A stretch of DNA of 64,000 nt. Source: a virus (taxonomy: Duplodnaviria; Caudoviricetes). The notes below the pieces were generated by a model. It saw only the letters and a program-made list of their open reading frames with translations. It had not been told where the DNA came from and searched no databases. Each line of letters opens with the position of its first letter. Position 1 is the first letter of the stretch. Made by a program: the position numbers and the translations under genes. Where the stretch lies: the IMG/VR virus record IMGVR_UViG_3300035512_000144, positions 9,940 through 73,939 of that record; one strand, 5' to 3'. Below are positions 6,362-31,745 of the stretch, piece by piece.

Positions 6362-6574
6362 TTACAAAAGCCCTTTATTCAAATCTGAAAGACTCATCAT
6401 AATTCCGTCTGCTTTTCCATTTGCAAGATATTCTTCCTTGTCAATAAAGCACAGCTTTGAATTGTTAATGTCCTCTTTATTCACAGCAATTCCAAAAATC
6501 AATCCGTCATTTTGCATTTGCGACTTCATGAATCCGATTGTTGCTTGCAGCATAAATTTAGCATCGTCCGTCAT
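6362..6574 (-). CDS. Hypothetical protein
   Basis: ORF in operon. Confidence 0.55.
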   Translation of the reverse strand: MTDDAKFMLQATIGFMKSQMQNDGLIFGIAVNKEDINNSKLCFIDKEEYLANGKADGIMMSLSDLNKGLL

Positions 6575-7005
6575 GGTTCCACCTCACTTAAAAGCTGTTC
6601 TACAATCTGCTTGCATTGGTCTATGCAGAAATCCAATGTACGGACTGTATTTTCTGAATTTCCAAATTGGAAATAACCAGTTTTTTCTAGCGTCAAAATA
6701 GTTTTCATAGTTTCATCATCTTCCGCATACAGTTTCTTTGCAGTTTCAACATCATATCCGTCACAATAATGTGTGCAATCAAAACCTATCCACCATACGT
6801 CTTTATCAGTTTGACAGTGTAATTCTCTTTCGCTGTATGTAAGACCACAATGACAAGAAATAGGGATTTTATCATAAGACTTCCCGTAATACTTGTGGCT
6901 TTTTGGCAGCCCTACATATCCGCACCGATAACCCATGTACATGAACAATACAACACATGGAAATCCTTTGTATTCAAATTTTGTTTCCTGCACAGGATTA
7001 AACAT
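6571..7005 (-). CDS. Phage hypothetical protein
   Basis: RCGYVGLP, HCGLTY, WWIGFDC.H motif. Confidence 0.65.
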   Translation of the reverse strand: MFNPVQETKFEYKGFPCVVLFMYMGYRCGYVGLPKSHKYYGKSYDKIPISCHCGLTYSERELHCQTDKDVWWIGFDCTHYCDGYDVETAKKLYAEDDETMKTILTLEKTGYFQFGNSENTVRTLDFCIDQCKQIVEQLLSEVEP

Positions 7006-8928
7006 CTACTCCACCTCCTTAACAATCAATTCCTTGTCATTCGTCCTGCGAATCATTATCACCTGTCTGTCAGTTTCGGGTATCTTGTCCAAATCAATAC
7101 TTTCAGTGTCCTCAATAATGATTGGCAGATTCACGCCGTAAGCATTTTGGAAACCTAAGCAGATATCAATCTCCGCAAGAATGCGGTTGCCGTGATTCAG
7201 ATTTCTGTAATAACTCTCGCCGTCAATCTTAGGTTCACATACAAGGTTTGTGTTGCCATTGATAAGAGTCTCAAATAGGTCAAACTGTATGTACTGGAAA
7301 GCACCGTTAATATCCTGTTCAAGCAGCTTGTTTTTAGTCTTTTCAAATTCCGATAAGTAGTAAAGTATCTGCTCCTGGTCTGCAATCTCCTGCGCAATCT
7401 TGCGCTGTTCCGTTTGTAATTCCGCGATCCGTTCATCAATCGCCGTGTTGTTTTCAGATTTTGCAATCTGCTTTTCAACCGTACTTAACTGTTCGCGGAT
7501 AGATTCTTCCTCTGACTGCAATTTCTCTCGGATTTCAGAAAATGAATTGCTTTCCTGCAAAAACTTTTCTTTATCGGCAATCTGCCGATTCAGTTCCGCG
7601 ATATCTGCACGGTCTGAAAGGTCTACTGACTGCGGAAGTGCTGCTAATTGATTTTCAAGGTCTGCAATAGCTGTATTAAGCATTTCAAGGCTTTTCTTAT
7701 GTTCTGCAAGTTCCAGTTCAAGTGTTCTCGATTTTTCTTGTTCAACCTCAATCTCAGATTTCAGACGCTTTCCTTTTTCTTCAATGGTTTTCAATTCTTC
7801 TGCCTTGTGGCTTTCAAATTCTGCCCTTAATTCGTCTTGTTTCTCTTTTGGGTATTCTTGTCCACAATACGAACAAACAAGGCTGTTTTCGTCAAATTCA
7901 AGTCTCTGTGTCTCTTTGTACTTTCCACGTAAATTTGAAATGTTTACTCGGTAACTTTCAATTTTGAAAATTGAATTTGAAATGTCATTTTCCGTATCTG
8001 AAATTATGTCCTGCGTCTGTTGCAAAAGAAATTTCTTGTTACCAATTAAGCGTTCTATTTCCTGTCTTGCTTTGATATTTTCCTCATTCGCCTGTCGCAC
8101 CAAATCGTTGACCTTGAATTTCAGTTCCAGTATTCCGTCACTTGCCTTGTCGATTTCCGCAAGCTGCGCAGATAAATCGTCCTGCTTTGACTTGACCTCT
8201 GCAAGTTGTTCTTTCAGTGCGTTTCGCGCAAGTTCCAATTCTGCAACGTCAATTTCCTCGCGTTTTTCTTCGTTTTCTTTGATTGCTCCAACGATTTCAT
8301 TTAATCTTTGCTCATATCCGACAACGTTTCTTGTCTTACTGCCGTGAATTTTGTCATTACACGTTTGTTTTATCTGCGCAACTGTTCCAAATTCTAATTC
8401 TGACCTTATAGGCTCAAATTCTGGAAACATATCAACAATTTCAGCGTTCTTTCTATTTCCAAAAACCTTTTCAATCAAATCTCTGCGTTTGGCAGCATCT
8501 AATTTGAAAAACGTCTGCGGATTCACGCATGATTCATTTGGAAACATATTTTTTAAATGTTCCGCATATTCTTTTGGTTTTTGAACAATTCCATTGATAT
8601 AGCAGCTTGTGACATAACCCTGTGGCTCATTCTTTCGGTTGTATGCCATTCCGTAGGATTTCTTTAACATAACTCCGTTATCAAGTTCCAGTTCAACTTC
8701 TGTTGGCACGTTATCGTCAATAATGTCTTTTCCGTCCTTGTCATGCGGGCGTATGCCTGTGATTTCCTTGCCGTTCTCGTCTTTCAGATTAAAAATCCAG
8801 TAGATAGCACGCTTTATGGTGCTTTTACCTGTCTCGTTGTGTCCTGCGATTTCTGTCCTATCAAACAGGTCTGTTTCCAGTGACCGGTGCTTGCAGAAAT
8901 TTGTCAGCCTTATGTGTTTGATTTTCAT
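7006..8928 (-). CDS. SMC/Rad50-like coiled-coil ATPase
   Basis: N-terminal Walker A GHNETGKST, long coiled coil with CSYC hook, C-terminal LN.G...IIIED.ESID. Confidence 0.85.
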   Translation of the reverse strand: MKIKHIRLTNFCKHRSLETDLFDRTEIAGHNETGKSTIKRAIYWIFNLKDENGKEITGIRPHDKDGKDIIDDNVPTEVELELDNGVMLKKSYGMAYNRKNEPQGYVTSCYINGIVQKPKEYAEHLKNMFPNESCVNPQTFFKLDAAKRRDLIEKVFGNRKNAEIVDMFPEFEPIRSELEFGTVAQIKQTCNDKIHGSKTRNVVGYEQRLNEIVGAIKENEEKREEIDVAELELARNALKEQLAEVKSKQDDLSAQLAEIDKASDGILELKFKVNDLVRQANEENIKARQEIERLIGNKKFLLQQTQDIISDTENDISNSIFKIESYRVNISNLRGKYKETQRLEFDENSLVCSYCGQEYPKEKQDELRAEFESHKAEELKTIEEKGKRLKSEIEVEQEKSRTLELELAEHKKSLEMLNTAIADLENQLAALPQSVDLSDRADIAELNRQIADKEKFLQESNSFSEIREKLQSEEESIREQLSTVEKQIAKSENNTAIDERIAELQTEQRKIAQEIADQEQILYYLSEFEKTKNKLLEQDINGAFQYIQFDLFETLINGNTNLVCEPKIDGESYYRNLNHGNRILAEIDICLGFQNAYGVNLPIIIEDTESIDLDKIPETDRQVIMIRRTNDKELIVKEVE

Positions 8929-9177
8929 TGACTTTCTCCCTCCTTTTCAATCTCACTCCTAAACCGCGCATCTAACATAGAAAACAATAATGCGTGCGCT
9001 GTTTGGAACATCACATGATTCAGTTCCTTGTCCTGAATGGCGAACATCATGGTAGCCGCCTGTAAAAATAACGCGCTGTCACCCTTGTTGCGGTTCTGCT
9101 TTCTGTCCATCATATAAAGGTCATATATCGGACTGTCTTTGATTCTCTGTGCAAAATCTTCCATGTTTGTGTTCATT
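8925..9177 (-). CDS. Hypothetical protein
   Basis: ORF with RBS AAGGAG. Confidence 0.55.
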
Positions 9178-9224
9178 GACTTTTCTCCTTTCAACTTGGA
9201 CGGTCATTCGCCCCATAAAATCAT

Positions 9225-10322
9225 TTATTCAGTTTTCAACAGGTTTACAGCTCGTTTGATTTCCTCTTCCGTAATGAGTGCTGACTGGAAGCGTATAAGT
9301 TTCTGACCATCGTTTGACTTAAAAAGCCCATCTCCGTTTCCTCTAAGTGTTTCAGCCCCATTTGAGCCAAGAATCATCCGACTGTTAAGCTTATCTACCG
9401 TTGCAAATCCGGCGCGGCATTGGAAGTTGCTTTTCAGCATTCCAGATATCACTTCCGCTTCAGGTCTTTGCGTTGATAAGATAACGTGGATTCCGCTTGC
9501 CCTTGCCTTTGCCGTAAGTCTTGATACATCATCCACAACCTTGTCTCCCTCCGATAAAATAAGGTCTGCCATTTCCTCAATATAGACCACGATCCGCGGT
9601 AGCTTGCCTTTTACGCTTGCGTTATATGAAGCAATATCTCGGCACTTATTCTTTGCAAATAATTCATATCGCAAGTCCATTTCCTCACACAGAATTTCAA
9701 GCTTTTTCCGCGCCGTCTTACTTTCCGTGATAATACTGGAAACTTGCGGAACACCCTTATAAAATCCAAATTCAACCGTTTTCGGGTCTATCAGAATCAG
9801 CTTCAAATCTTCCTTTGAGTATTGAAGTAAAAGCGATAACACGATATTGTGTGCAAATACCGACTTTCCGCTACCAGTTTGACCACCGATAAGAAAATGT
9901 GGCATAGTCGCAAGGTCATATGTTATTCCGCTACCGTCTAATGCTTCTCCGATTGATATAAACAATCCTTCCTTGTAGTTTTCAATCTTATTTAATTCCT
10001 CAATACAATCTGCAAATCCGTATGTTCCGCGTTCATTGTTTGGGACTTCAATGCACACATACTTTCCGTCCTGCGCAATCCTGCAACCATTCGTATTAAA
10101 TATGGAATTAAACTCACGAACCTTTCCGAGAAGAAATTTGATATAGTGCGGTTTAACTTCCACGTCATATCTTGTTGCAGCCGTTCCGCAATAGATTCCT
10201 TTTACATCCGCGTCAATGAACAACTGACTTTGGAATATCCGTTCCAAATCTTCCTTGTTCATGACCGTTTCTTCATGCTTAACCGAATGATTAAAGCAAT
10301 CTAAAAATTTACTGTCTATCAT
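9225..10322 (-). CDS. FtsK/SpoIIIE-like ATPase (alpha/beta motor only; no TM anchor, no gamma domain)
   Basis: MPHFLIGGQTGSGKS, LILIDPK, RIVVYIEEMADL, ARASGIHVILSTQRP, GAETLRGNGDGL. Confidence 0.85.
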   Translation of the reverse strand: MIDSKFLDCFNHSVKHEETVMNKEDLERIFQSQLFIDADVKGIYCGTAATRYDVEVKPHYIKFLLGKVREFNSIFNTNGCRIAQDGKYVCIEVPNNERGTYGFADCIEELNKIENYKEGLFISIGEALDGSGITYDLATMPHFLIGGQTGSGKSVFAHNIVLSLLLQYSKEDLKLILIDPKTVEFGFYKGVPQVSSIITESKTARKKLEILCEEMDLRYELFAKNKCRDIASYNASVKGKLPRIVVYIEEMADLILSEGDKVVDDVSRLTAKARASGIHVILSTQRPEAEVISGMLKSNFQCRAGFATVDKLNSRMILGSNGAETLRGNGDGLFKSNDGQKLIRFQSALITEEEIKRAVNLLKTE

Positions 10323-10700: not shown

Positions 10701-10995
10701 TTTCGATTACCTTGATAATCCGTATGGGTATCGTACAATGGTGGAATGAAGATTGCAGACATTGTCGCTCGATATCCTTTATAAATCTTAATGGTCTCAT
10801 ACACACAGAAAAACCACTATGCACCTACTTCGATACCCTTATCATTTCGTATAGGTGTCTACCTCTGTATGGTATCTGGCACAATGCAAATACCGTTCGA
10901 TACCCTTGTGAAATCGTATGGGTCTCATCCACTTTTGTTTTGAACAATACAATATTCTAGTTCGATACCCTTGTGAAATCGTATGGGTCTCATCC
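10701..10995 (-). CRISPR. Degenerate CRISPR-like mini-array 1: five 36-bp repeats, four spacers
   Basis: Repeats at 10701, 10767, 10828, 10895, 10960. The last two are identical (GTTCGATACCCTTGTGAAATCGTATGGGTCTCATCC, + strand); the others are 26-27/36 identical. Spacers are 30, 25, 31 and 29 bp. Confidence 0.85.
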
Positions 10996-11135
10996 CTCAA
11001 GAAACATCTGTTCTGTTTTTATACCCTTACTTAACAAGGTATATGCGTAGACGGTTTCTATCAGCCATATAGACTAATCACTAGACGTTTTCCGCATAAG
11101 TTTTGAGTTTTACCTCTTAGGACAATCGTTTGCCC
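10996..11135 (-). ncRNA. Putative tracr/omega-like scaffold RNA, copy 1
   Basis: Non-coding, between effector stop and first repeat; blockwise homologous to 12736-12872; 5' hairpin GGGCAA-ACGA-TTGTCC; contains ATACCTTGT complementary to repeat ACAAGGGTAT. Confidence 0.65.
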
Positions 11136-11145
11136 TTCTTCAATT

Positions 11146-12525
11146 TTATTTCAGCGCAAGATACATCTCTCTTGCGTATCTCTGCCTATAATCATTTTCC
11201 GACCTGTCGATATCTTTTATTTTCAGCTTTACCACAGTACCGCTATCAGCAGATGCTAACTTTGTTTCTATCAGCGTTACCAACATAGCAGGAGCATTAT
11301 GACCGACTGAATATCCTGCTTTGCTTTTCTTTTCATTTTCATTCTCAGTCTCTTTCTTCCGCATTGCCGCCGCTTGAAAGGGATAATCGTTGACCATAAT
11401 CATATTTCCATGAGACAAAATCTCATTTGCGATCGCGATTCTTTCCAGTTTTCGATTTTCGGCTTGTACCCGGTGCAAATCTCGCAACTCTGCAACCGCC
11501 TTGTGATATCCGTTTGAAAAATTCCATTTCAGCCGATAACGATTACCGTCAAAATAAATGCCTTTCTTACAAGTGCCATCCTCGTTGAAATTTTCGGGAT
11601 TCATAGCGCGTCTTGAATTGTCAAGGTACTGTTGTAAGGCTTTTATTTTCGTGTCATAGTAAATGTCTGTATCTGTATCTTCAAGGCTTATATCCGTAAA
11701 GGTTTCACCGTCTGACGTGTAGACCACATGAGACGTATCAATATACATTCCAACCTTGCCTTTATTGATAGGATTCTTTTCGTTGCCGTCCTTGTCATAC
11801 TTGGTGACAGGTGCTTTATCAATCGTTATCTGAACGTACCATTTCAATGTTCCACGGACTTCTTTATTGATAATGCGCACCTGTTTATATGATTCCAAAT
11901 CAAGCATTTCCAGTTTGTAATAGTCTTTCGGGTCTAACTTCAACGGCATTTTGATTGTCTTGCCATGTGCCGTACTGTAAACGCAATACAGTTTCCTGCC
12001 GTTTGCGTTCCCTCTGACCTTTTCCCAATCATCATCAACAATGCGTATTCCGCTTTTACCCTGTGAAACCATGGAATACCATTCGCCTTTACGCTTAAAC
12101 TTTATCTGTCTGCCACTTCCGAAAAAGTAATCATCAAATGCCGCCCACATAGCAGGTGCAATCGTGTTTCCTGCGACCTCACTCGGAATATTCATATTGA
12201 AATGTTTATAGAAACTCGTTGTGTCTCCGACAAATCCCATCTTGGAAAATCTGTACTCTTTCATAAGGTCATTCTTCGTCTGACACGCCGCCTTGAAATC
12301 AGCGTCTTTCTTTCTCTCCGCAGGCTCCATGTTTTTGTACGCATTAGCGATAACTTCCTTCGCTTGCTTGTATTCGGGTCTACGTTCCATTTCCCTAAGT
12401 TTCTTCAACTCATATCCCAACATGGAATTGTAAATTTGTCGGCAAATCTCAAACCGCTTTACAAGTGCGTCTGACTGCCATTTCTCTGTTTTTAGTGGGA
12501 TTGTGACTACACTCATTGCTCCCAT
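11146..12525 (-). CDS. TnpB/Cas12f-like RNA-guided protein, probably nuclease-dead
   Basis: TnpB-like N-terminus (RQIYNSML), WED strand KWYVQITID, RuvC-I position VGMYIDT, bridge helix LDNSRRAMNP, RuvC-II position MVNDY, APAMLVTLIETKL; C-terminal Zn finger/RuvC-III absent. Confidence 0.8.
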   Translation of the reverse strand: MGAMSVVTIPLKTEKWQSDALVKRFEICRQIYNSMLGYELKKLREMERRPEYKQAKEVIANAYKNMEPAERKKDADFKAACQTKNDLMKEYRFSKMGFVGDTTSFYKHFNMNIPSEVAGNTIAPAMWAAFDDYFFGSGRQIKFKRKGEWYSMVSQGKSGIRIVDDDWEKVRGNANGRKLYCVYSTAHGKTIKMPLKLDPKDYYKLEMLDLESYKQVRIINKEVRGTLKWYVQITIDKAPVTKYDKDGNEKNPINKGKVGMYIDTSHVVYTSDGETFTDISLEDTDTDIYYDTKIKALQQYLDNSRRAMNPENFNEDGTCKKGIYFDGNRYRLKWNFSNGYHKAVAELRDLHRVQAENRKLERIAIANEILSHGNMIMVNDYPFQAAAMRKKETENENEKKSKAGYSVGHNAPAMLVTLIETKLASADSGTVVKLKIKDIDRSENDYRQRYAREMYLALK

Positions 12526-12567
12526 TGTTTTCTCCTTCTTTCATTTACTATCCGAGACGTGGATGTG

Positions 12568-12735
12568 GCTCGATATCCTTACAAAATAAGATACCTCTCG
12601 TACTCCGTCTACAAGCTTATAACATAACTGATAGTTCGATACCCTTGTCAAAAGATATCTTTCTCGTACAATGGTATGCCATAAATCCGAGTGATACCGG
12701 TTCGATACACTTGTGAAAATCTATACCTCTCGCAC
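12568..12735 (-). CRISPR. Degenerate CRISPR-like mini-array 2: three 36-bp repeats, two 30-bp spacers
   Basis: Repeats at 12568, 12634, 12700 (exact 66-bp period), 23-27/36 identical to the array-1 consensus, sharing the GTTCGATACCCTT end. Confidence 0.8.
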
Positions 12736-12872
12736 CTCAAAGCACGTCTGTTCGATTTCGAGATATCCAGTTTACAAGGTGCTAGGTAGACGGCTTCTTC
12801 CATGCGTATAGCATAGACACTGACCGTTTTCCCATTGCGTTTTGCATTTCTGCTTCGGTCAATCGTTTGACC
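12736..12872 (-). ncRNA. Putative tracr/omega-like scaffold RNA, copy 2
   Basis: Homologous to 10996-11135; 5' hairpin GGTCAA-ACGA-TTGACC; directly abuts the first repeat. Confidence 0.65.
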
Positions 12873-12880
12873 GCTATAAT

Positions 12881-13204
12881 CTATTTATCCTTAATCCTCT
12901 CCAACTGCCTGCGAACCTTGTAATCTTTCGCCTGCTCGACCATGTCCTCACAGTTCAAAAGTACTTTCATTTGCGCAAGCATGACCTCTACGTCTGCGAT
13001 TTCTTCAACCATGTTGTTGAAACAAGCACTCTTTTCAAACTCGTTGGTTTTCCGAATGCCGTAAAATTCAACGACTCCGCAACCTAATTCCTTTCTCCAA
13101 AACTTGTTGACAGCCTGCGTCAGCTCCGCCATTTCTTCAATGAGCTGTCTGCTCTGCGCGTCATAGCCGTAATGCCTTGCAATATGCTCAATTGCCTTAC
13201 TCAT
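12881..13204 (-). CDS. MazG-like nucleotide pyrophosphohydrolase
   Basis: LIEEMAELTQAV ... MVEEIADVEVML. Confidence 0.8.
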   Translation of the reverse strand: MSKAIEHIARHYGYDAQSRQLIEEMAELTQAVNKFWRKELGCGVVEFYGIRKTNEFEKSACFNNMVEEIADVEVMLAQMKVLLNCEDMVEQAKDYKVRRQLERIKDK

Positions 13205-13382
13205 TATTTTTGTCACCTCTCCTGCTCTTGATGTAGTCGCAAGTGTCAAATATGCTCATTACAAGCCAATACACACAGGCAAACGCCCATGCACACTTGG
13301 CTGTCGTGCCATCTAATACCGCCACATTCATAGCACTCAAAATCGCGATTGCATAACCGCCAATAATCTTCACTACTTCCAT
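13197..13382 (-). CDS. Small membrane protein
   Basis: Two hydrophobic segments. Confidence 0.55.
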   Translation of the reverse strand: MEVVKIIGGYAIAILSAMNVAVLDGTTAKCAWAFACVYWLVMSIFDTCDYIKSRRGDKNNE

Positions 13383-20814: not shown

Positions 20815-21171
20815 TTATGCGTTCATTTCCAGTTCCATAATCCGAAGGTCAAGTTCTGTGATTGTCTGCTCTGCCTCCATGATAGCGATATCCTGTGCTG
20901 TGATTTCCTGCTCCGTGGCTACAATGCCCGGCGTGAATCTATCCTCATACCGGCTGTGATGGTCAATCACATACCAGTCATAGCATCTGCCGTCTGCGCC
21001 TTCCTCTGACCGATATTTTTCCAAAACGTCAAAGTTGTCCGTTATGTGACTGTCTGCATACTTCCTTGTGATTGACACGCCTCCTGTTAGGTTTGAATGT
21101 TCCTCCCCAACGGTTTTCAAGTTTTCCATCCTCACGCCATTACGCCGCACTGTCCCGAAGATGTAATCCAT
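20815..21171 (-). CDS. Hypothetical protein with C-terminal coiled coil (XkdW-like position)
   Basis: QEITAQDIAIMEAEQTITELDLRIMELE precedes XkdX. Confidence 0.6.
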   Translation of the reverse strand: MDYIFGTVRRNGVRMENLKTVGEEHSNLTGGVSITRKYADSHITDNFDVLEKYRSEEGADGRCYDWYVIDHHSRYEDRFTPGIVATEQEITAQDIAIMEAEQTITELDLRIMELEMNA

Positions 21172-22232
21172 TTTTTAATCGCCTCCTTGTAATAGTCGCG
21201 CACGATCTTCTTTAGCTGCCTTTGCGTATGTTTCTTCACAAAGTTTGCATAAAGATGTACGCTGTTGCAATGTTTCAACGCACCAAGCCTTGATAACAGA
21301 CCTTGTGCGAATTTCACTGGTACGAGTCTGCCACATTCTCTCATGCGGTAGTACCGTTTCAGATGTTGTTTCAACCGCAGAAGTGTTTTCTTTCTCAGGA
21401 GTGTATACCCTTTGCCAAATCTATATCCGAGCGCATTCGGCATTCTCTTTGATGTCCTGAATTTCTGCCAGTTCCCTTTCAACTCCAGTTCATGTTCTCC
21501 GAGCCATGCGCTAACAAGGGCAATGATTTTGCCTGCTGTTCTCTTGCGGTTTGTGAAAACAGTAAAGTTGTCCATATACCTTATATAATGTGTCGCGCCG
21601 TTTTCTCTGATAAGCTGGTCAAGCGGCTGCAAGACTGTGTTTGCAAACCACTGTGAGCAATATGCGCCTATCATAATCCCGTCCTTGATGATACGTTCAA
21701 TCAAATCCAAGGTTCTGAAATCCTTGATAAGCTGTTTCATGCGTTTCATAACTATTTCCGGTTTCAGACTATCGTAGAAATGGCGTATGTCCATCTCAAT
21801 GCAATATTTCATGCCTTTTCCGCGTTTCATCCACTTCTTGATGCCATTAGCGCCGTAAATCGTGCCGCGTTTCTTGATGCTCCCGCAACACCACTTGTCC
21901 ATGCCTCGCATAAATATTGGTTCTAACACTTGTATCAGTGCATGATGAACACATTGGTCGGGAAACATTTTAGGTTCGCATATCTCCCGCCACTTTTCAG
22001 CGTTCATGTCATACCTTTTCTTTTTGATGACAGGGGACGGCTCAAATCCATTCACCAACAATTCGTATAATTCATGTACTCTTTCGTCCATGGTATTTTC
22101 CAACCATATGACGGTCTTATTCGGTTTGTCGGGAAAATGAACCCATCTGTGCGAATTGCATACCGTCTGTATCGCTTTCCTTAGATTTTCTTCTGAAATT
22201 ATCTTTGTAAATAAATGATTAGCACGTTTCAT
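21132..22232 (-). CDS. DGR reverse transcriptase
   Basis: K.REI..P, DQCVHHA, MDIRHFYDS, GIMIGAYCSQWFAN, YIRYMDNF, LGY; adjacent TR/VR pair. Confidence 0.92.
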   Translation of the reverse strand: MKRANHLFTKIISEENLRKAIQTVCNSHRWVHFPDKPNKTVIWLENTMDERVHELYELLVNGFEPSPVIKKKRYDMNAEKWREICEPKMFPDQCVHHALIQVLEPIFMRGMDKWCCGSIKKRGTIYGANGIKKWMKRGKGMKYCIEMDIRHFYDSLKPEIVMKRMKQLIKDFRTLDLIERIIKDGIMIGAYCSQWFANTVLQPLDQLIRENGATHYIRYMDNFTVFTNRKRTAGKIIALVSAWLGEHELELKGNWQKFRTSKRMPNALGYRFGKGYTLLRKKTLLRLKQHLKRYYRMRECGRLVPVKFAQGLLSRLGALKHCNSVHLYANFVKKHTQRQLKKIVRDYYKEAIKKWITSSGQCGVMA

Positions 22233-22414
22233 TGATATGCCATCTCCTTTTGACCTAACGACCTTTCCCACGCCATTTCTGGGGTACTAAGCCGTTCCAT
22301 ATCGGCACTATCTTCACCGTGTGGTGTGCGGTTTCTGCACCTATATAAAAACGCTTCAGATGTAAGCGTAATTACTGAAATAATTGGATGTGCAATCCGA
22401 TTTTAAAAGGGGTT

Positions 22415-22668: not shown

Positions 22669-24726
22669 CTATGGCAATTCGAGGAGACGGGAACCGACGA
22701 AGCCGTACGAGCCCGAGGCGGCGCTGCCGCCGTCCAAGTAGAACAACCCGTAGTCCTGGCCCCGGCTGTAGTAGCCGCCCACGCGCAACACAACCCCAGA
22801 AGCGTTGCAGTCGCAGTAGTCGCATACATATGTTGACTTGCTTCCAGATACCGCCGATACGTACCAAAACTTATAATTCGAACTTATACTCATAATGTCG
22901 TAAGCAGATATATACCCGGATGATGTTGGTCTTTCGCCTACCAGTGTTCCATTGGATGAATCTGAGAATTTTGACGGGTTAATGATGTAATATATATTTG
23001 CACCGCTGAAATAGATGCCATCACACCAATCAAACACATTGCCCCACAAATCCTCGATGTAGCGGTACTGTGTAGCACCGTAAATAGTTCTGCTCGTCCT
23101 GTCTGTTCCGGTGTGATACGGCATGGAATCTGTCGCACCTGTGGAGTAAATTGATCCACTTGGAGAACAGCCGTACCCTATCTTTTCTTGTGAGTTCCAG
23201 TTAGCGAACTCCACTAGATAGAGCATTCGTATTGTTACAAGGGTGGCGTAATCCCATTGCCAGATGTTTGCACCCAAATTGTGGATATAGGTTCTGAAAT
23301 TCGCTCTCGTTACATTCCCTTTTGGAGTAACACCAGTTTCAGATTTATAATTCGAGGAACAGTGATATCTTCCAACGTATATTACATCCCTTTCGCCTGT
23401 TCCATCGCCCCTGTCCATGTGGGCGGGCGAAACAAAATACCCTTCCGATTTCGCATATGCAGAATATTCCTTCGGAACAATTTGCAACTTCATCTTTGTT
23501 CCGCTTTTGGTCAGCTTGTAGTAATACTTCGGGATAGACACCATGACACCGCCCGTCCTCGTACTTTTCTGCATTCCTGCCCACGGCTGAATGCCATCAA
23601 ATGGGCTTCCCGGCGTGGTCGTCATTCCGCTATAATACGGATTCGGGTCGGTAAAACCCTCTGCATCGTCTGTCCGGCTCCAGGATGTTGTGCTTGTCCC
23701 ATCCCATTCTACGCCGTAAACCGCTGCAAACGATGCTGTGACGGATATTGTCTTGCTTGTGGAGTTATGGTTATCATCCGATGCTACCGAAACCGTAATG
23801 GTGGCTGTTCCTGACGCACCACTTGGGCTTGTGATTGTAATTACACCGTCACTTGCCAACGTGGTCGGCGAAACTGTCGCAATGCTCGTATTTGACGATT
23901 TAACCGTGACTGTTCCTGTGGCTCCCGAAACATTGACCGTTGCTGACTCATTACTGCTGTCCAGCGTTACAGAGGTTTTTGACAGTGTGACATTGCCGGA
24001 TGCTTTGTTGATGCTCCAGGCGATTTCTATCCCGTCTGTCGTTCCATCTGACCACATATAGTCAATCGTAGGCGTAAATATAGCGGAATAAGAGCCGGCG
24101 TTAATGCCAGATACTTCACCGCTCACATCGCAGCTACCGTCTACATAGCCGGACCATGTCGGTGTCTGTTCCTCTCCTGTATATGTAAGAGTGTTCCCCT
24201 GCGTTGGTGTTTGCAATACAATTCTCTCCGGTGCCGCAGATATACTTGTGCCGTCTGTGTATTTCTTGCCGTCAGTGTACGGAAAGAATCTGTAATAGTA
24301 AACCTTTCCATTTTCAAGTCCACTATCTGTGTATGGAGTAGATGCGTAAGCATTCCGCTCCTTGCTGTCAACTACAACGTCACCGTCTGTCTTGCTTGTT
24401 GGTGCTGAACCTTCCTTTCTCACTAGAAGCGTTCCTCCCCATGCCGCCAACGTCACGCCGGATAATACAACATCCTCCGGGTCTGTCCATGTGAGCGAAA
24501 CGGAACGAGATGATGCAGTCGCGGATGCACCGATTACATCTCCAATGCCAACACCACCGCCGCCTCCGCCCTCAATCGTACATGAGTCTAGCGTTTTATC
24601 ACCGGACTTTAGCTGAAATACGCCGGACAAGGAATTATAATCCAAGTTATCCGCCTTTCCATCCAACTCGATTTTCACTAAATCCAATATTTCTTTTATG
24701 TTTTCCTTGCCCAAAAATTTCTTCAT
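22669..24726 (-). CDS. DGR target: tail fibre/receptor-binding protein with FN3/Ig-like repeats and C-terminal CLec-like domain
   Basis: VSLTWTDP...YYYRFFPY (FN3), Thr/Ser-rich Ig-like repeats, YRYIEDLWGNV, VLRVGGYY; VR at the C-terminus. Confidence 0.85.
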   Translation of the reverse strand: MKKFLGKENIKEILDLVKIELDGKADNLDYNSLSGVFQLKSGDKTLDSCTIEGGGGGGVGIGDVIGASATASSRSVSLTWTDPEDVVLSGVTLAAWGGTLLVRKEGSAPTSKTDGDVVVDSKERNAYASTPYTDSGLENGKVYYYRFFPYTDGKKYTDGTSISAAPERIVLQTPTQGNTLTYTGEEQTPTWSGYVDGSCDVSGEVSGINAGSYSAIFTPTIDYMWSDGTTDGIEIAWSINKASGNVTLSKTSVTLDSSNESATVNVSGATGTVTVKSSNTSIATVSPTTLASDGVITITSPSGASGTATITVSVASDDNHNSTSKTISVTASFAAVYGVEWDGTSTTSWSRTDDAEGFTDPNPYYSGMTTTPGSPFDGIQPWAGMQKSTRTGGVMVSIPKYYYKLTKSGTKMKLQIVPKEYSAYAKSEGYFVSPAHMDRGDGTGERDVIYVGRYHCSSNYKSETGVTPKGNVTRANFRTYIHNLGANIWQWDYATLVTIRMLYLVEFANWNSQEKIGYGCSPSGSIYSTGATDSMPYHTGTDRTSRTIYGATQYRYIEDLWGNVFDWCDGIYFSGANIYYIINPSKFSDSSNGTLVGERPTSSGYISAYDIMSISSNYKFWYVSAVSGSKSTYVCDYCDCNASGVVLRVGGYYSRGQDYGLFYLDGGSAASGSYGFVGSRLLELP
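22689..22823 (-). repeat. DGR variable repeat (VR)
   Basis: 3' end of the 685-aa gene; aligns without gaps to TR. Confidence 0.95.
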
Positions 24727-29768: not shown

Positions 29769-31745
29769 TTATTTTATCCATTCTTCAACTAACTGTTCAA
29801 ATTCTTCTGCCGTCATAAGTATCTTTCGCGGCTTTGTTCCTTCTTCTTCTCCAACAACACCAAAATCACAAAGCTGGTCTAAAATGCGTGCTGCCCTGTT
29901 AAAGCCTATCTTGAAAACTCTCTGTAACATTCCTATGTAGGCTTTATCACGCTCTATTACATATCTTCCTGCGTCTACAAACAATGGGTCAAATTCCGAA
30001 TCAAAATTTCCTCCGGAGCCGATATCCATTTTTTTAATCTGTTCCTCTACATCATCGCTGTAAACATTTCCTATTGATTGATTTATCAAAAAATCAACAA
30101 CGTCTGCCACTTCTCTTTCAGAAATAAACGCACCCTGCGCACGAATTGGTTTCGGATAGAGCCACGGATAAAGCATTAAATCGCCTTTCCCGAAAAGATG
30201 TTCTGCTCCATATTCACCTATAACATTTCTCGAATCTCTAGCTGTTGGCAGTTTGAAAACCATTTTGCTCGGAATGTCACGTTTGATATTATTCGTAAGA
30301 ATATTGGAATTAGTTGACCGTGTGGAAACAATCAAATGTATTCCTGCCGACCTTCCCATTTGTGCCAATTTGCAAATATTTTCTTCGATTTCTGCCGGAT
30401 AAGTGAGCATTAAATCAGTCAACTCATTTACAATTATCAAAATCTCCGGCAATTTCCTTTGTGTTTCTGGGTCGCCTGTTTCCCTCATGCTCTCCACTTT
30501 TTTGTTATATCCTTTTAAGTCTCGCACGTAGAAATATCCAAACTTCTTGTAACGGTCAGTCATCTCCGCCACACCCCAGTGCAATGCAGAAACAGCCTTC
30601 TTAGGGTCTGTCACAACCGGAATCAAGAGATGCGGAATCCCATTGTAAATATTCAAGTTGACAATTTTAGGGTCTATCAGAATCATTTTCACATTATCCG
30701 GATGCGCTTTGTACAAAATGCTCATAATAATTGTATCAATGCAAACAGATTTTCCGGAGCCTGTCTCTCCCGCAATCAGAAGATGTGGCATTTTGGAAAT
30801 GTCAGTCAATACAATCTGACCGCTGACATCTTTACCAACGGCAAACGCAAGATTGGATGGAAACTCTTTAAATTCTTTTGACTCTACTAAATCGCGGAAA
30901 CAAACCACCGCATTCTCTTTGTTTGGAATATCAATTCCAACTGCCGCTTTTCCCGGAATAGGAGCCTCAATACGAATGTCCGTAGCTGCAAGATTCAACT
31001 TAATATCATTTGCAAGTCCAACAATCTTACTGACCCTAACGCCCTGTTGCGGTTGCATCTCATATCTTGTAAAAGATGAACCTTGGTCGATATCTGTTAT
31101 AGTGACTCTTACTCCAAAATTTTCTAAAGTCTGTTGTAAAAGTGCCGCCGTCTCGCGTAGTTCCTTTTCTGTTGTTCCTCCGACTCTGCACTTTCCCTTT
31201 GCCAACAAACTGACTGGTGGGAATTTGTATTCTTTTTTAACTTCACGTTCTTTTTGGTTTTCCTCTTTGTGTTCTTCTTTTTCGCCTATGTTTTCTTCAT
31301 GGATTTCCTCTTTTGTTTCTTCTTGTGTTTCGTTGCTTTCTATTTTTTCATTTACGTCTTTTTCTTCTACCGGAGAATCACACTTCGCCTCATTTTCAAT
31401 TTGAGGTTCCGGCACCGGATTATCTTCCGAAATATTTATGTTATGTTCTTCTATATCTTCATCAATAGCATTTGGAGTGGTATTTTCAACACACTCTAAA
31501 TATGCAGACACGGCATTTTCTGTATATGTGCCACGTTGCGTATGTGGTTTTGATACATTCTCTTTTTTATTCGCAAAATGTTTTCTTCTCCTAGCGGAAT
31601 TTGGAATAGATAATACTACTTTATATAGAAGATACACAACAAAAATCAAAACAGCATAAGGCAAAACGGCTTTTACAGCATTGAAAATCCATTCAACCGC
31701 ATAAATAAGCATTCCGAGTAAGAATAAATCAAATAGAAATTCCAT
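29769..31745 (-). CDS. FtsK/SpoIIIE-like DNA translocase (moron) with altered Walker B
   Basis: N-terminal TMs, RIEAPIPGK, MPHLLIAGETGSGKS, IIVNEL, gamma domain LQRVFKIGFNRAARILDQL. Confidence 0.85.
   Translation of the reverse strand: MEFLFDLFLLGMLIYAVEWIFNAVKAVLPYAVLIFVVYLLYKVVLSIPNSARRRKHFANKKENVSKPHTQRGTYTENAVSAYLECVENTTPNAIDEDIEEHNINISEDNPVPEPQIENEAKCDSPVEEKDVNEKIESNETQEETKEEIHEENIGEKEEHKEENQKEREVKKEYKFPPVSLLAKGKCRVGGTTEKELRETAALLQQTLENFGVRVTITDIDQGSSFTRYEMQPQQGVRVSKIVGLANDIKLNLAATDIRIEAPIPGKAAVGIDIPNKENAVVCFRDLVESKEFKEFPSNLAFAVGKDVSGQIVLTDISKMPHLLIAGETGSGKSVCIDTIIMSILYKAHPDNVKMILIDPKIVNLNIYNGIPHLLIPVVTDPKKAVSALHWGVAEMTDRYKKFGYFYVRDLKGYNKKVESMRETGDPETQRKLPEILIIVNELTDLMLTYPAEIEENICKLAQMGRSAGIHLIVSTRSTNSNILTNNIKRDIPSKMVFKLPTARDSRNVIGEYGAEHLFGKGDLMLYPWLYPKPIRAQGAFISEREVADVVDFLINQSIGNVYSDDVEEQIKKMDIGSGGNFDSEFDPLFVDAGRYVIERDKAYIGMLQRVFKIGFNRAARILDQLCDFGVVGEEEGTKPRKILMTAEEFEQLVEEWIK

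Follow-up and report, generated by a model that had tools for sequence, protein, structure and literature searches.

Organization of the locus

The subject of this analysis is a gene for a TnpB-like protein, hereafter the effector, and the repeat arrays that flank it at positions 10,701-12,872 of a 64,000-nt stretch of viral DNA (hereafter, the window; positions 9,940 to 73,939 of the IMG/VR virus record IMGVR_UViG_3300035512_000144, Duplodnaviria; Caudoviricetes). The complete record comprises 73,939 bp and is 100% complete by CheckV. On each side of the gene lies a cassette that consists of a scaffold RNA element, a short linker and a small array of clustered regularly interspaced short palindromic repeats (CRISPR). 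The features of the locus are, in the transcribed order (tracrRNA, trans-activating CRISPR RNA; R1, the scaffold covariance model described below):

13249-12881, minus strand: MazG-like gene, the first in the transcribed order, ahead of scaffold 2
12771-12872, minus strand: scaffold 2, an upstream-type tracrRNA-like element with the 5' hairpin GGTCAA..TTGACC and the 3' end CACCTTGTAAA
12736-12770, minus strand: linker 2, 35 nt, in which (as read from the sequence) a pseudo-repeat end, ..ATCGAAC, is followed by a conserved ~15-nt stretch, AGACGTGCTTTGAGG
12568-12735, minus strand: array 2, three 36-nt repeats and two 30-nt spacers, with repeat starts spaced 66 and 66 nt apart
11146-12525, minus strand: effector gene (P0001), preceded by a ribosome-binding site; 459 aa, TnpB-like, RuvC-dead
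11031-11135, minus strand: scaffold 1, a downstream-type tracrRNA-like element that begins 10 nt past the effector stop codon (R1 score of 101.5 bits)
10996-11030, minus strand: linker 1, 35 nt, a degenerate 3' half of the repeat, AAGGGTATAAAAAC, then ..GAAC and AGATGTTTCTTGAGG
10701-10995, minus strand: array 1, five 36-nt repeats and four spacers of 25-31 nt, with repeat starts spaced 66, 61, 67 and 65 nt apart
9110-9213, minus strand: probable remnant of a third scaffold (R1 score of 31.8 bits, E 4e-4), in which the 5' hairpin GGGCGAATGACCGTCC is the sole recognizable part

The eight 36-nt repeats that flank the effector gene are 64-100% identical to the reference copy and recur with a period of 61-67 nt; a third 30-nt stretch of array 2 (12538-12567) extends into the ribosome-binding site of the effector gene. 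In array 1, the two scaffold-proximal repeats are identical and the distal ones are 72-75% identical, which is the usual polarity of CRISPR arrays. The spacers (25-31 nt) each occur once in the 73.9-kb genome, apart from chance matches of 11-12 nt. Strong scaffold matches in nhmmer and covariance model searches (E ~1e-18 to 1e-19) are found only at 11028-11135 and 12768-12872; for scaffold 2, the nhmmer E-value is 7e-26 and the R1 score is 96.1 bits at 12768-12872. The layout agrees with that given in an earlier note made from the sequence alone, namely, 36-bp repeats with a 61-67-bp period, non-repeated spacers, a duplicated scaffold and, on the minus strand, the order of scaffold 2, three repeats, gene, scaffold 1 and five repeats; the division into scaffold-plus-mini-array cassettes proposed there, i.e., a structured scaffold followed by an array, is upheld by RNA structure prediction and covariation.

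Scaffolds 1 and 2 are paralogs of ~105 nt that are 72% identical to each other. Scaffold 1 is 87-89% identical to the downstream-type scaffolds of the related phage loci L001 and L228, and scaffold 2 is 80-81% identical to its orthologs in the same two loci; among the related phages, identity ranges from 87 to 92% for the downstream type and from 74 to 81% for the upstream type. Because orthologous scaffolds stay similar despite the divergence of the adjoining effector gene (proportion of differing synonymous sites, pS, of 0.62-0.66 among the same phages), the duplication of the scaffold is taken to be old, and both copies are kept. RNAalifold predicts three helices from ten scaffolds. The covariance model R1 covers 24 scaffold copies, all of which (24/24) are on the strand of the gene, and in the R1 alignment 88% of the cells are paired, compared to 56% after shuffling and ~40% with the partners slid, with compensatory changes in 17 of the 18 base pairs; fitting of the alignment to the model biases it towards structure, but the slide control is nonetheless clearly separate. 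This comparative evidence indicates that the scaffold is a structured RNA. No Rfam family matches the scaffolds.

All scaffolds end with C-C-T-T-G-T-A/T-A at the 3' end, and all repeats end with (T)TACAAGG-N-N-A/G-TC-G/A-AAC, immediately followed by the spacer. The scaffold 3' end CCTTGTAA is complementary to TTACAAGG in the repeat 3' handle, in a tracrRNA-like manner, so that the predicted order is an anti-repeat:repeat duplex of 7-10 bp, ~9 unpaired nucleotides and the guide. This is the layout of the guides of Cas12f, Cas12n and TranC, the transposon-CRISPR intermediates (10.64898/2026.03.27.714800). The 5' half of the repeat differs between cassettes and mostly holds a 3-4-bp palindrome (GGU/ACC, CCU/AGG, CCC/GGG or GCCC/GGGU), which hints at weak hairpins. 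Between the scaffold and the first repeat of both cassettes, and also in L228 and L001, there is a pseudo-repeat end, CGAAC, followed by the conserved ~15-nt stretch AGA[CT]GT..TTTGAGG, which may be a fixed guide, a leader or a processing site. The spacers themselves change fast: L228, with the effector 88% identical at the protein level, shares the layout and none of the spacers, and there is no spacer sharing between phages at 83-88% protein identity.

A TnpB-like protein with a degenerate RuvC site

The effector matches the PHROG profile phrog_506, "transposase" (E 4.9e-20), and the NCBIfam profile NF040570, guided_TnpB, with 37.8 bits (E 1.4e-9), which is below the 100-bit cut-off of this family, the match stopping at position 332 of 389; in Pfam, there is a weak match to HTH_OrfB_IS605 and nothing else. 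PADLOC yields no significant effector match, with no Cas12 model above noise, and sequence searches of the PDB with the single protein (phmmer) and with a profile find no match, the chains of Cas12m and LaTranC included. [quoted passage not shown] The other Z-scores are 19.8 for ISFba1 TnpB, ~17 for Cas12f, Fanzor2 and dCas12f, 16.4 for LaTranC and 15.7 for Cas12m2; the top Foldseek match is Cas12m2 (E 3.6e-13). Sequence identity is 9-14% to all structural matches (TnpB and small Cas12 proteins). To judge from this model, the effector is a protein of the TnpB/Cas12 fold (WED-REC-RuvC) with detectable sequence homology to TnpB.

The protein is 31% identical to the OrfB of an IS605 element of Geobacillus virus E3, which adjoins an IS200 TnpA, and relatives at 29-38% identity retain the RuvC motifs GIDIG, VE-x-M and QRDLYSAF. 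The effector and its closest homologs form a group (the dead clade) in which RuvC-I reads G-x-[Y/H/F]-I-D-T, RuvC-II reads V-N-D-Y-P-F, and the RuvC-III site is unconstrained (Q/K/E/D). Accordingly, the three catalytic positions of the effector are Y, N, and Q or a gap, whereas those of the intact relatives are D, E and D. In addition, the segment ahead of RuvC-III is deleted in the dead clade and the C-terminal tail is gone; about 20-45 C-terminal residues are lost. The gene itself is well preserved: the ratio of nonsynonymous to synonymous substitution rates (dN/dS) among three phage orthologs is 0.055-0.074, with dS above 1.2, i.e., the effector gene is under strong purifying selection.

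Related loci, phylogeny and genomic context

About 20 related loci, on contigs that resemble phages or plasmids, combine the gene with the scaffold and the mini-array, frequently with cassettes on either side of the gene. The mini-arrays of the relatives have a period of ~65 nt and mostly have a scaffold ahead of them:

L001: five repeats upstream, one downstream, and a third cassette
L002: four repeats downstream; a third cassette with four
L228: three repeats upstream, three downstream
L125: upstream array of three repeats; downstream scaffold match
L127: three cassettes
L129 / L038: 14 repeats
L130, L131, L132 and L133: arrays and/or scaffold matches flank the gene, in L132 and L133 downstream only
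L223: three repeats
L224: six repeats upstream, three downstream
L225: two repeats upstream, two downstream
L122 (B. fibrisolvens): two scaffolds in tandem
L136, L190 and L061: arrays; a second dead group

The contexts of these loci are phage-like or resemble plasmids or integrative and conjugative elements, with genes for Mob_Pre, ParM-like ALP_N, integrases, RecG, ThyA and RNase H nearby. In L224, a second, 520-aa Cas12f1-like_TNB protein is encoded just downstream of the dead-clade locus (8200-9762), and in L223 a complete IS605 (Y1_Tnp and OrfB) adjoins it (8166-9701). Annotation of the neighbours detects no protein partner that recurs across the loci examined; HTH (helix-turn-helix) and FtsK genes, considered as candidate partners, are not supported because the neighbours differ among the relatives.

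A FastTree phylogeny of 173 open reading frames from the fetched loci was rooted at the midpoint and is, hence, provisional. The dead proteins form one clade, with a core of 13 leaves (support 0.995) that grows to 16 leaves (support 1.0) with L136, L190 and L061. Its sister group includes two RuvC-intact clades (58 and 13 leaves) and a clade of 85 leaves without arrays, IS605 elements among them. Nearly all members of the RuvC-intact clades, which come from Oscillospiraceae, Ruminococcus, Christensenellales and related groups, have arrays of 3-16 repeats ~200 nt downstream of the gene. These relatives (L004, L015, L030, L031, L144 and ~55 more loci) are proteins of 500-540 aa with 33-38% identity, and are probably TranC-type nucleases; no adaptation gene was seen, Cas1 being the only one searched for in any relative, in the metagenome-assembled genome (MAG) of L038. 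Their arrays lie downstream, with the exception of L054, and upstream cassettes are otherwise confined to the dead clade. The intact and dead-clade scaffolds have motifs in common by eye, such as GGGAAAA-N-N-GTCAG-Y-G and GAA-N-N-C-N-R-TCTACC.

Of the 120 clusters listed at 90% identity, 79 or more have the dead motif, and among the representatives at 50% identity, one or more catalytic residues are missing from ~75 of the ~130 full-length top matches (two or three in the majority), the substitutions in the triad being of many kinds. Other parts of the tree show independent losses as well: L027 (V/K) belongs to an intact clade with arrays, and L188/L197 and L195/L198 (Y/Q and D/V) belong to the clade without arrays; short arrays are present in some of these loci, too. 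The sequence relationships place the family between transposon TnpB and CRISPR, and suggest an origin from a Firmicutes IS605 TnpB branch, independent of Cas12m. The earlier note had proposed a TnpB/Cas12-like effector with degenerate RuvC motifs, to be checked by profile and structure searches, and had named orthologs without flanking repeats as evidence that array and gene are not linked. The searches bear out the affiliation of the protein, all three catalytic positions are lost relative to the RuvC-intact relatives, the linkage persists in about 20 loci, and the position in the tree is consistent with the TnpB-to-CRISPR intermediate envisaged there.

In the phage genome, the locus is preceded by genes for a Cro-like regulator, Ant, an SSB-like protein and the MazG-like protein; an HTH gene comes next after array 1 in the transcribed direction, and the downstream neighbours also include FtsK-like, SbcC-like and RecT genes. 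These genes and a divergent cI-like gene make up the early module of a temperate siphovirus, in accord with the early/middle operon noted from the sequence. Cas1, Cas4, Y1 TnpA and serine-recombinase (resolvase-type) TnpA are absent across the whole 73.9-kb genome, and for Cas2 there is at most a 13.4-bit fragment below the cut-off, so the reported lack of cas1/cas2/cas4 and tnpA in the window extends to the entire phage. A TnpA-bearing insertion sequence (IS) element is not indicated, given the lack of Y1_Tnp and resolvase-type TnpA in the 74-kb genome, IS ends not having been searched for. A scan for sigma-70 promoters and terminators gives none above shuffled expectation. The scaffold remnant at 9110-9213 comes directly after the FtsK-like gene and is followed by a small unannotated open reading frame (8925-9176, minus strand); its position matches that of the full third scaffold-plus-array cassettes of L001 (3822-4060) and L002 (2590-2966). 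Two other samples hold identical copies of the phage, with identical arrays.

Several other genes of this phage deserve mention. The early operon encodes a second MazG-like NTP (nucleoside triphosphate) pyrophosphohydrolase (6571-7005, minus strand) besides that at 12881-13249 (minus strand). An FtsK/SpoIIIE-like gene (phrog_1358) is present both in the early module (9225-10322, minus strand) and among the structural genes (29769-31745, minus strand). A reverse transcriptase gene (phrog_1423, E 2e-76) adjoins a tail protein gene (21132-22271 and 22669-24726, both on the minus strand), and the two probably constitute a diversity-generating retroelement acting on the tail fibre.

Proposed function and relation to known systems

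The loss of the catalytic triad, the strong selection on the protein and the conserved, co-oriented guide cassettes together point to an RNA-guided DNA binder that does not cut, and the locus probably silences its targets, most likely rival mobile elements. Under this proposal, the protein would derive from an IS605-type TnpB, in a lineage whose RuvC-intact members were already array-adjacent, similar to TranC; both the catalytic triad of RuvC and the C-terminal insertion are gone from it. Each of the two paralogous cassettes would supply a ~105-nt structured scaffold RNA and, after the short linker, a mini CRISPR array, whose transcript, as part of the early operon, would be cut into CRISPR RNAs (crRNAs). 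The repeat 3' handle, ..TTTACAAGGGTATCGAAC, would pair via TTACAAGG with the scaffold 3' anti-repeat CCTTGTAA, and the complex of scaffold, crRNA and protein would bind spacer-complementary DNA beside a target-adjacent motif (TAM). Because such a complex would be unable to cleave, it is proposed to block transcription or replication of the target. Fast spacer turnover and carriage by phage- and plasmid-like elements make competing mobile elements or host defence loci the likeliest targets, rather than one fixed host promoter; the hypervariability of the spacers and the mobile-element carriage also favour a role in conflict, as in the case of plasmid Cas12m (PMC11013384, PMC11656645).

Several observations weigh against this interpretation. 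The search for spacer targets among Lachnospiraceae genomes and phages, called for in the earlier note, was unsuccessful: for each array, 401 Lachnospiraceae genomes give only 20-25-nt matches at the chance level, and GenBank phages contain no target for either array. Neither is there a target in the phage's own 74-kb genome, in PLSDB plasmids (array 1) or in IMG/VR (exact 20-22-mers of six spacers). In addition, several repeats of the phage are degenerate (64-75%), the anti-repeat duplex is only 7-10 bp long, and the scaffold-by-repeat matrix of RNAduplex energies reveals no cognate preference, for which reason an "orthogonal" pairing of scaffolds and arrays is not claimed. Finally, an Asp two residues past the lost RuvC-I Asp is conserved, so that residual chemistry is formally possible. 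Two Lachnospiraceae matches coincide on spacer A1S4; they fall in unrelated genes and are not taken as targets. The complete 58-kb relative of L001 contains no target of array 1, and the arrays of the relatives, compared to this genome and to all fetched loci, give repeat-to-repeat matches only. The 14-spacer array of L038 has no target in its own MAG or in GenBank phages, nor does the 6-spacer array of L224 in GenBank phages. No spacer match in these searches thus supports the repression of host defence or regulatory genes that the earlier note suggested. Another contig of the MAG that bears the 14-spacer locus L038 encodes Cas1, which is compatible with spacer acquisition in trans but does not prove it.

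The conserved Asp bears directly on the possibility that the protein still cuts, via substitute acidic residues (conserved D263 and D380) or by recruiting a nuclease in trans. The D of G-x-Y-I-D-T and the D after the Asn are, indeed, near-invariant in the clade; however, the third catalytic position is free to vary (Q/K/E/D), the part found ahead of RuvC-III in the relatives is deleted, more than 70 clusters at 50% identity display many different triad substitutions, and no conserved nuclease is encoded among the neighbours, all of which makes residual cleavage quite improbable. If the protein is taken to be dead, a phage-borne early-operon system of this kind could also act as an anti-defence decoy, in which the protein and its scaffolds or repeats soak up the crRNA or tracrRNA of host TranC- or Cas12-type systems, as a dominant-negative or an RNA anti-CRISPR, with the spacers irrelevant. 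There is a precedent in a phage Cas9 with an inactivated RuvC and a phage tracrRNA, for which sequestration of host crRNA has been proposed (PMC11656645). Against a decoy, unique, fast-changing spacers are maintained, the same system is seen on bacterial or plasmid-like contigs with up to 14 spacers, and the dead-clade repeats and scaffolds are unlike their counterparts in RuvC-intact relatives with arrays and evolve in concert with the dead proteins; this explanation is considered unlikely.

Spacer turnover is also an objection to a fixed-target transcription factor, the guides of which would control certain genes of the host or of the phage itself, e.g., in the lysis-lysogeny decision or the early-late switch. 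TldRs are dead TnpBs, some of them prophage-encoded, that repress host fliC (10.1101/2023.11.30.569447), and a fixed guide might be provided by the ~15-nt stretch after the pseudo-repeat, which all cassettes of the close phages conserve. Yet the spacers are not conserved at 83-88% protein identity, none of them and neither of the two ~15-mers has a second match of at least 13 nt in the 74-kb genome, and no recurrent neighbour gene is seen, so that a regulator of this type, too, has little likelihood. As for the repeats functioning as DNA, e.g., as iterons of a replication origin or protein-binding sites of the replication module, their location among replication and recombination genes would fit, but the adjoining scaffold shows RNA-type compensatory changes, the orientation relative to the gene is fixed (24/24), the spacers are hypervariable, and the scaffold motifs are, by eye, in common with those upstream of true CRISPR arrays of the intact relatives; such a role is very improbable. 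The RNA-guided, non-cutting binder is, accordingly, retained as the preferred interpretation.

Among the known systems, TranC (Jin et al. 2025, cited in 10.64898/2026.03.27.714800 and PMC13565253; LaTranC structures, PDB 9jfo/9jfq) is characterized, in the accounts given by the citing papers, as array-adjacent TnpB without adaptation genes. According to the same accounts, the two have in common a TnpB-sized, IS605-derived protein beside a short array (3-20 repeats of 32-38 bp in TranC) without cas1/cas2, as well as hosts among Clostridia and Caudoviricetes; TranC has a two-part guide of a tracr-like scaffold and a crRNA, and in the present case a scaffold with a 7-10-nt 3' anti-repeat is predicted; the RuvC-intact relatives of the effector have exactly the TranC layout. 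The differences, on this description, are that TranCs are DNA-cleaving whereas the triad is lost from the sequence here, and that duplicate cassettes flank the gene; in addition, the effector has no sequence match to LaTranC (structural Z-score of 16.4). One of the "putative" TranC clades of Jin et al. 2025 may be the dead clade. Proteins that lack the DED (Asp-Glu-Asp) triad were explicitly excluded from a 2026 survey of TranC-like systems, and a September 2026 review includes no dead, array-guided TnpB among its systems. No description of a dead, tracr-dependent, multi-cassette phage form was found in the searchable literature, the original TranC paper being outside that search. Thus, the suggestion that the architecture is unlike any described subtype holds for the dead multi-cassette phage form within the literature searched, but not for array adjacency as such, which TranC and the RuvC-intact relatives also display.

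TldRs (10.1101/2023.11.30.569447) are similar in being TnpB derivatives with an inactivated and truncated RuvC, partly prophage-borne, for which RNA-guided DNA binding is presumed. As described, however, a TldR has one adjacent guide RNA with a conserved guide for a fixed promoter (fliC or oppA) and is linked to fliC or oppF genes, and the paper mentions CRISPR arrays in the introduction only, whereas the present loci have arrays of 2-14 spacers, a separate scaffold, hypervariable spacers and phage early genes as neighbours. Cas12m (subtype V-M) and Cas12c are array-guided, binding-only effectors, enriched on plasmids and some prophages, that act in mobile-element conflicts (PMC11013384, PMC11656645, 10.64898/2026.03.26.714355); some Cas12m proteins lack the DED triad, and Cas12m2 is the top Foldseek match of the effector. 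Nevertheless, Cas12m proteins of 580-650 aa employ a crRNA alone, without tracrRNA, in contrast to the scaffold RNA seen here, and show no similarity to the effector at the level of hidden Markov models, ranking below TnpB and Cas12f in VIA-align (Z-score of 15.7 vs 22.7). The dCas12f-sigmaE system (Hoffmann et al. 2026, PMC13472631) and Cas12k of CRISPR-associated transposons are further examples of small type V proteins that are dead in nature and employ guide RNAs for purposes other than cleavage, but require a linked extracytoplasmic function (ECF) sigma factor or TnsB/TnsC/TniQ; PHROG and Pfam annotation of the neighbours in the window and in six relatives identifies no TnsB, TnsC, TniQ or ECF sigma gene. 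Virus-borne mini-arrays, with one to few spacers in viral genomes, are thought to serve virus-virus competition, but these copy host repeats and borrow host Cas proteins (PMC11656645), whereas here the phage supplies the effector and the scaffold.

The general traits of type V systems, i.e., the TnpB/Cas12 fold and the array adjacency, are present and conserved in about 20 loci, and the use of crRNA is predicted. The locus thus combines features of known kinds (TldR, Cas12m and TranC) and is not categorically new. Tentatively, the dead clade might be viewed as a type V-like subtype, so far unclassified, that descends from TranC-type systems and only binds: a natural, tracr-dependent form of CRISPR interference (CRISPRi) with a protein of ~460 aa and one to three cassettes, fast to be reprogrammed, perhaps by host Cas1-Cas2 in trans, and directed at the silencing of rival mobile elements.

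If the proposed function is correct, loss of the nuclease followed the capture of an array at least once in the evolution of TnpB, and natural RNA-guided silencing would have a third origin in addition to those of TldR and Cas12m/Cas12c, one that lies in phages and uses several guides at once. Considering the pseudo-repeats and the RuvC-intact relatives, a single gene family would span the TnpB of transposons, an active nuclease with array-derived guides and a dead binder with guides of the same kind. The split of the omega-RNA into tracrRNA and crRNA, and the meaning of arrays without cas1/cas2, would thereby become directly testable. A natural predicted DNA binder of 459 aa with a ~105-nt scaffold would also be of interest for compact CRISPRi.

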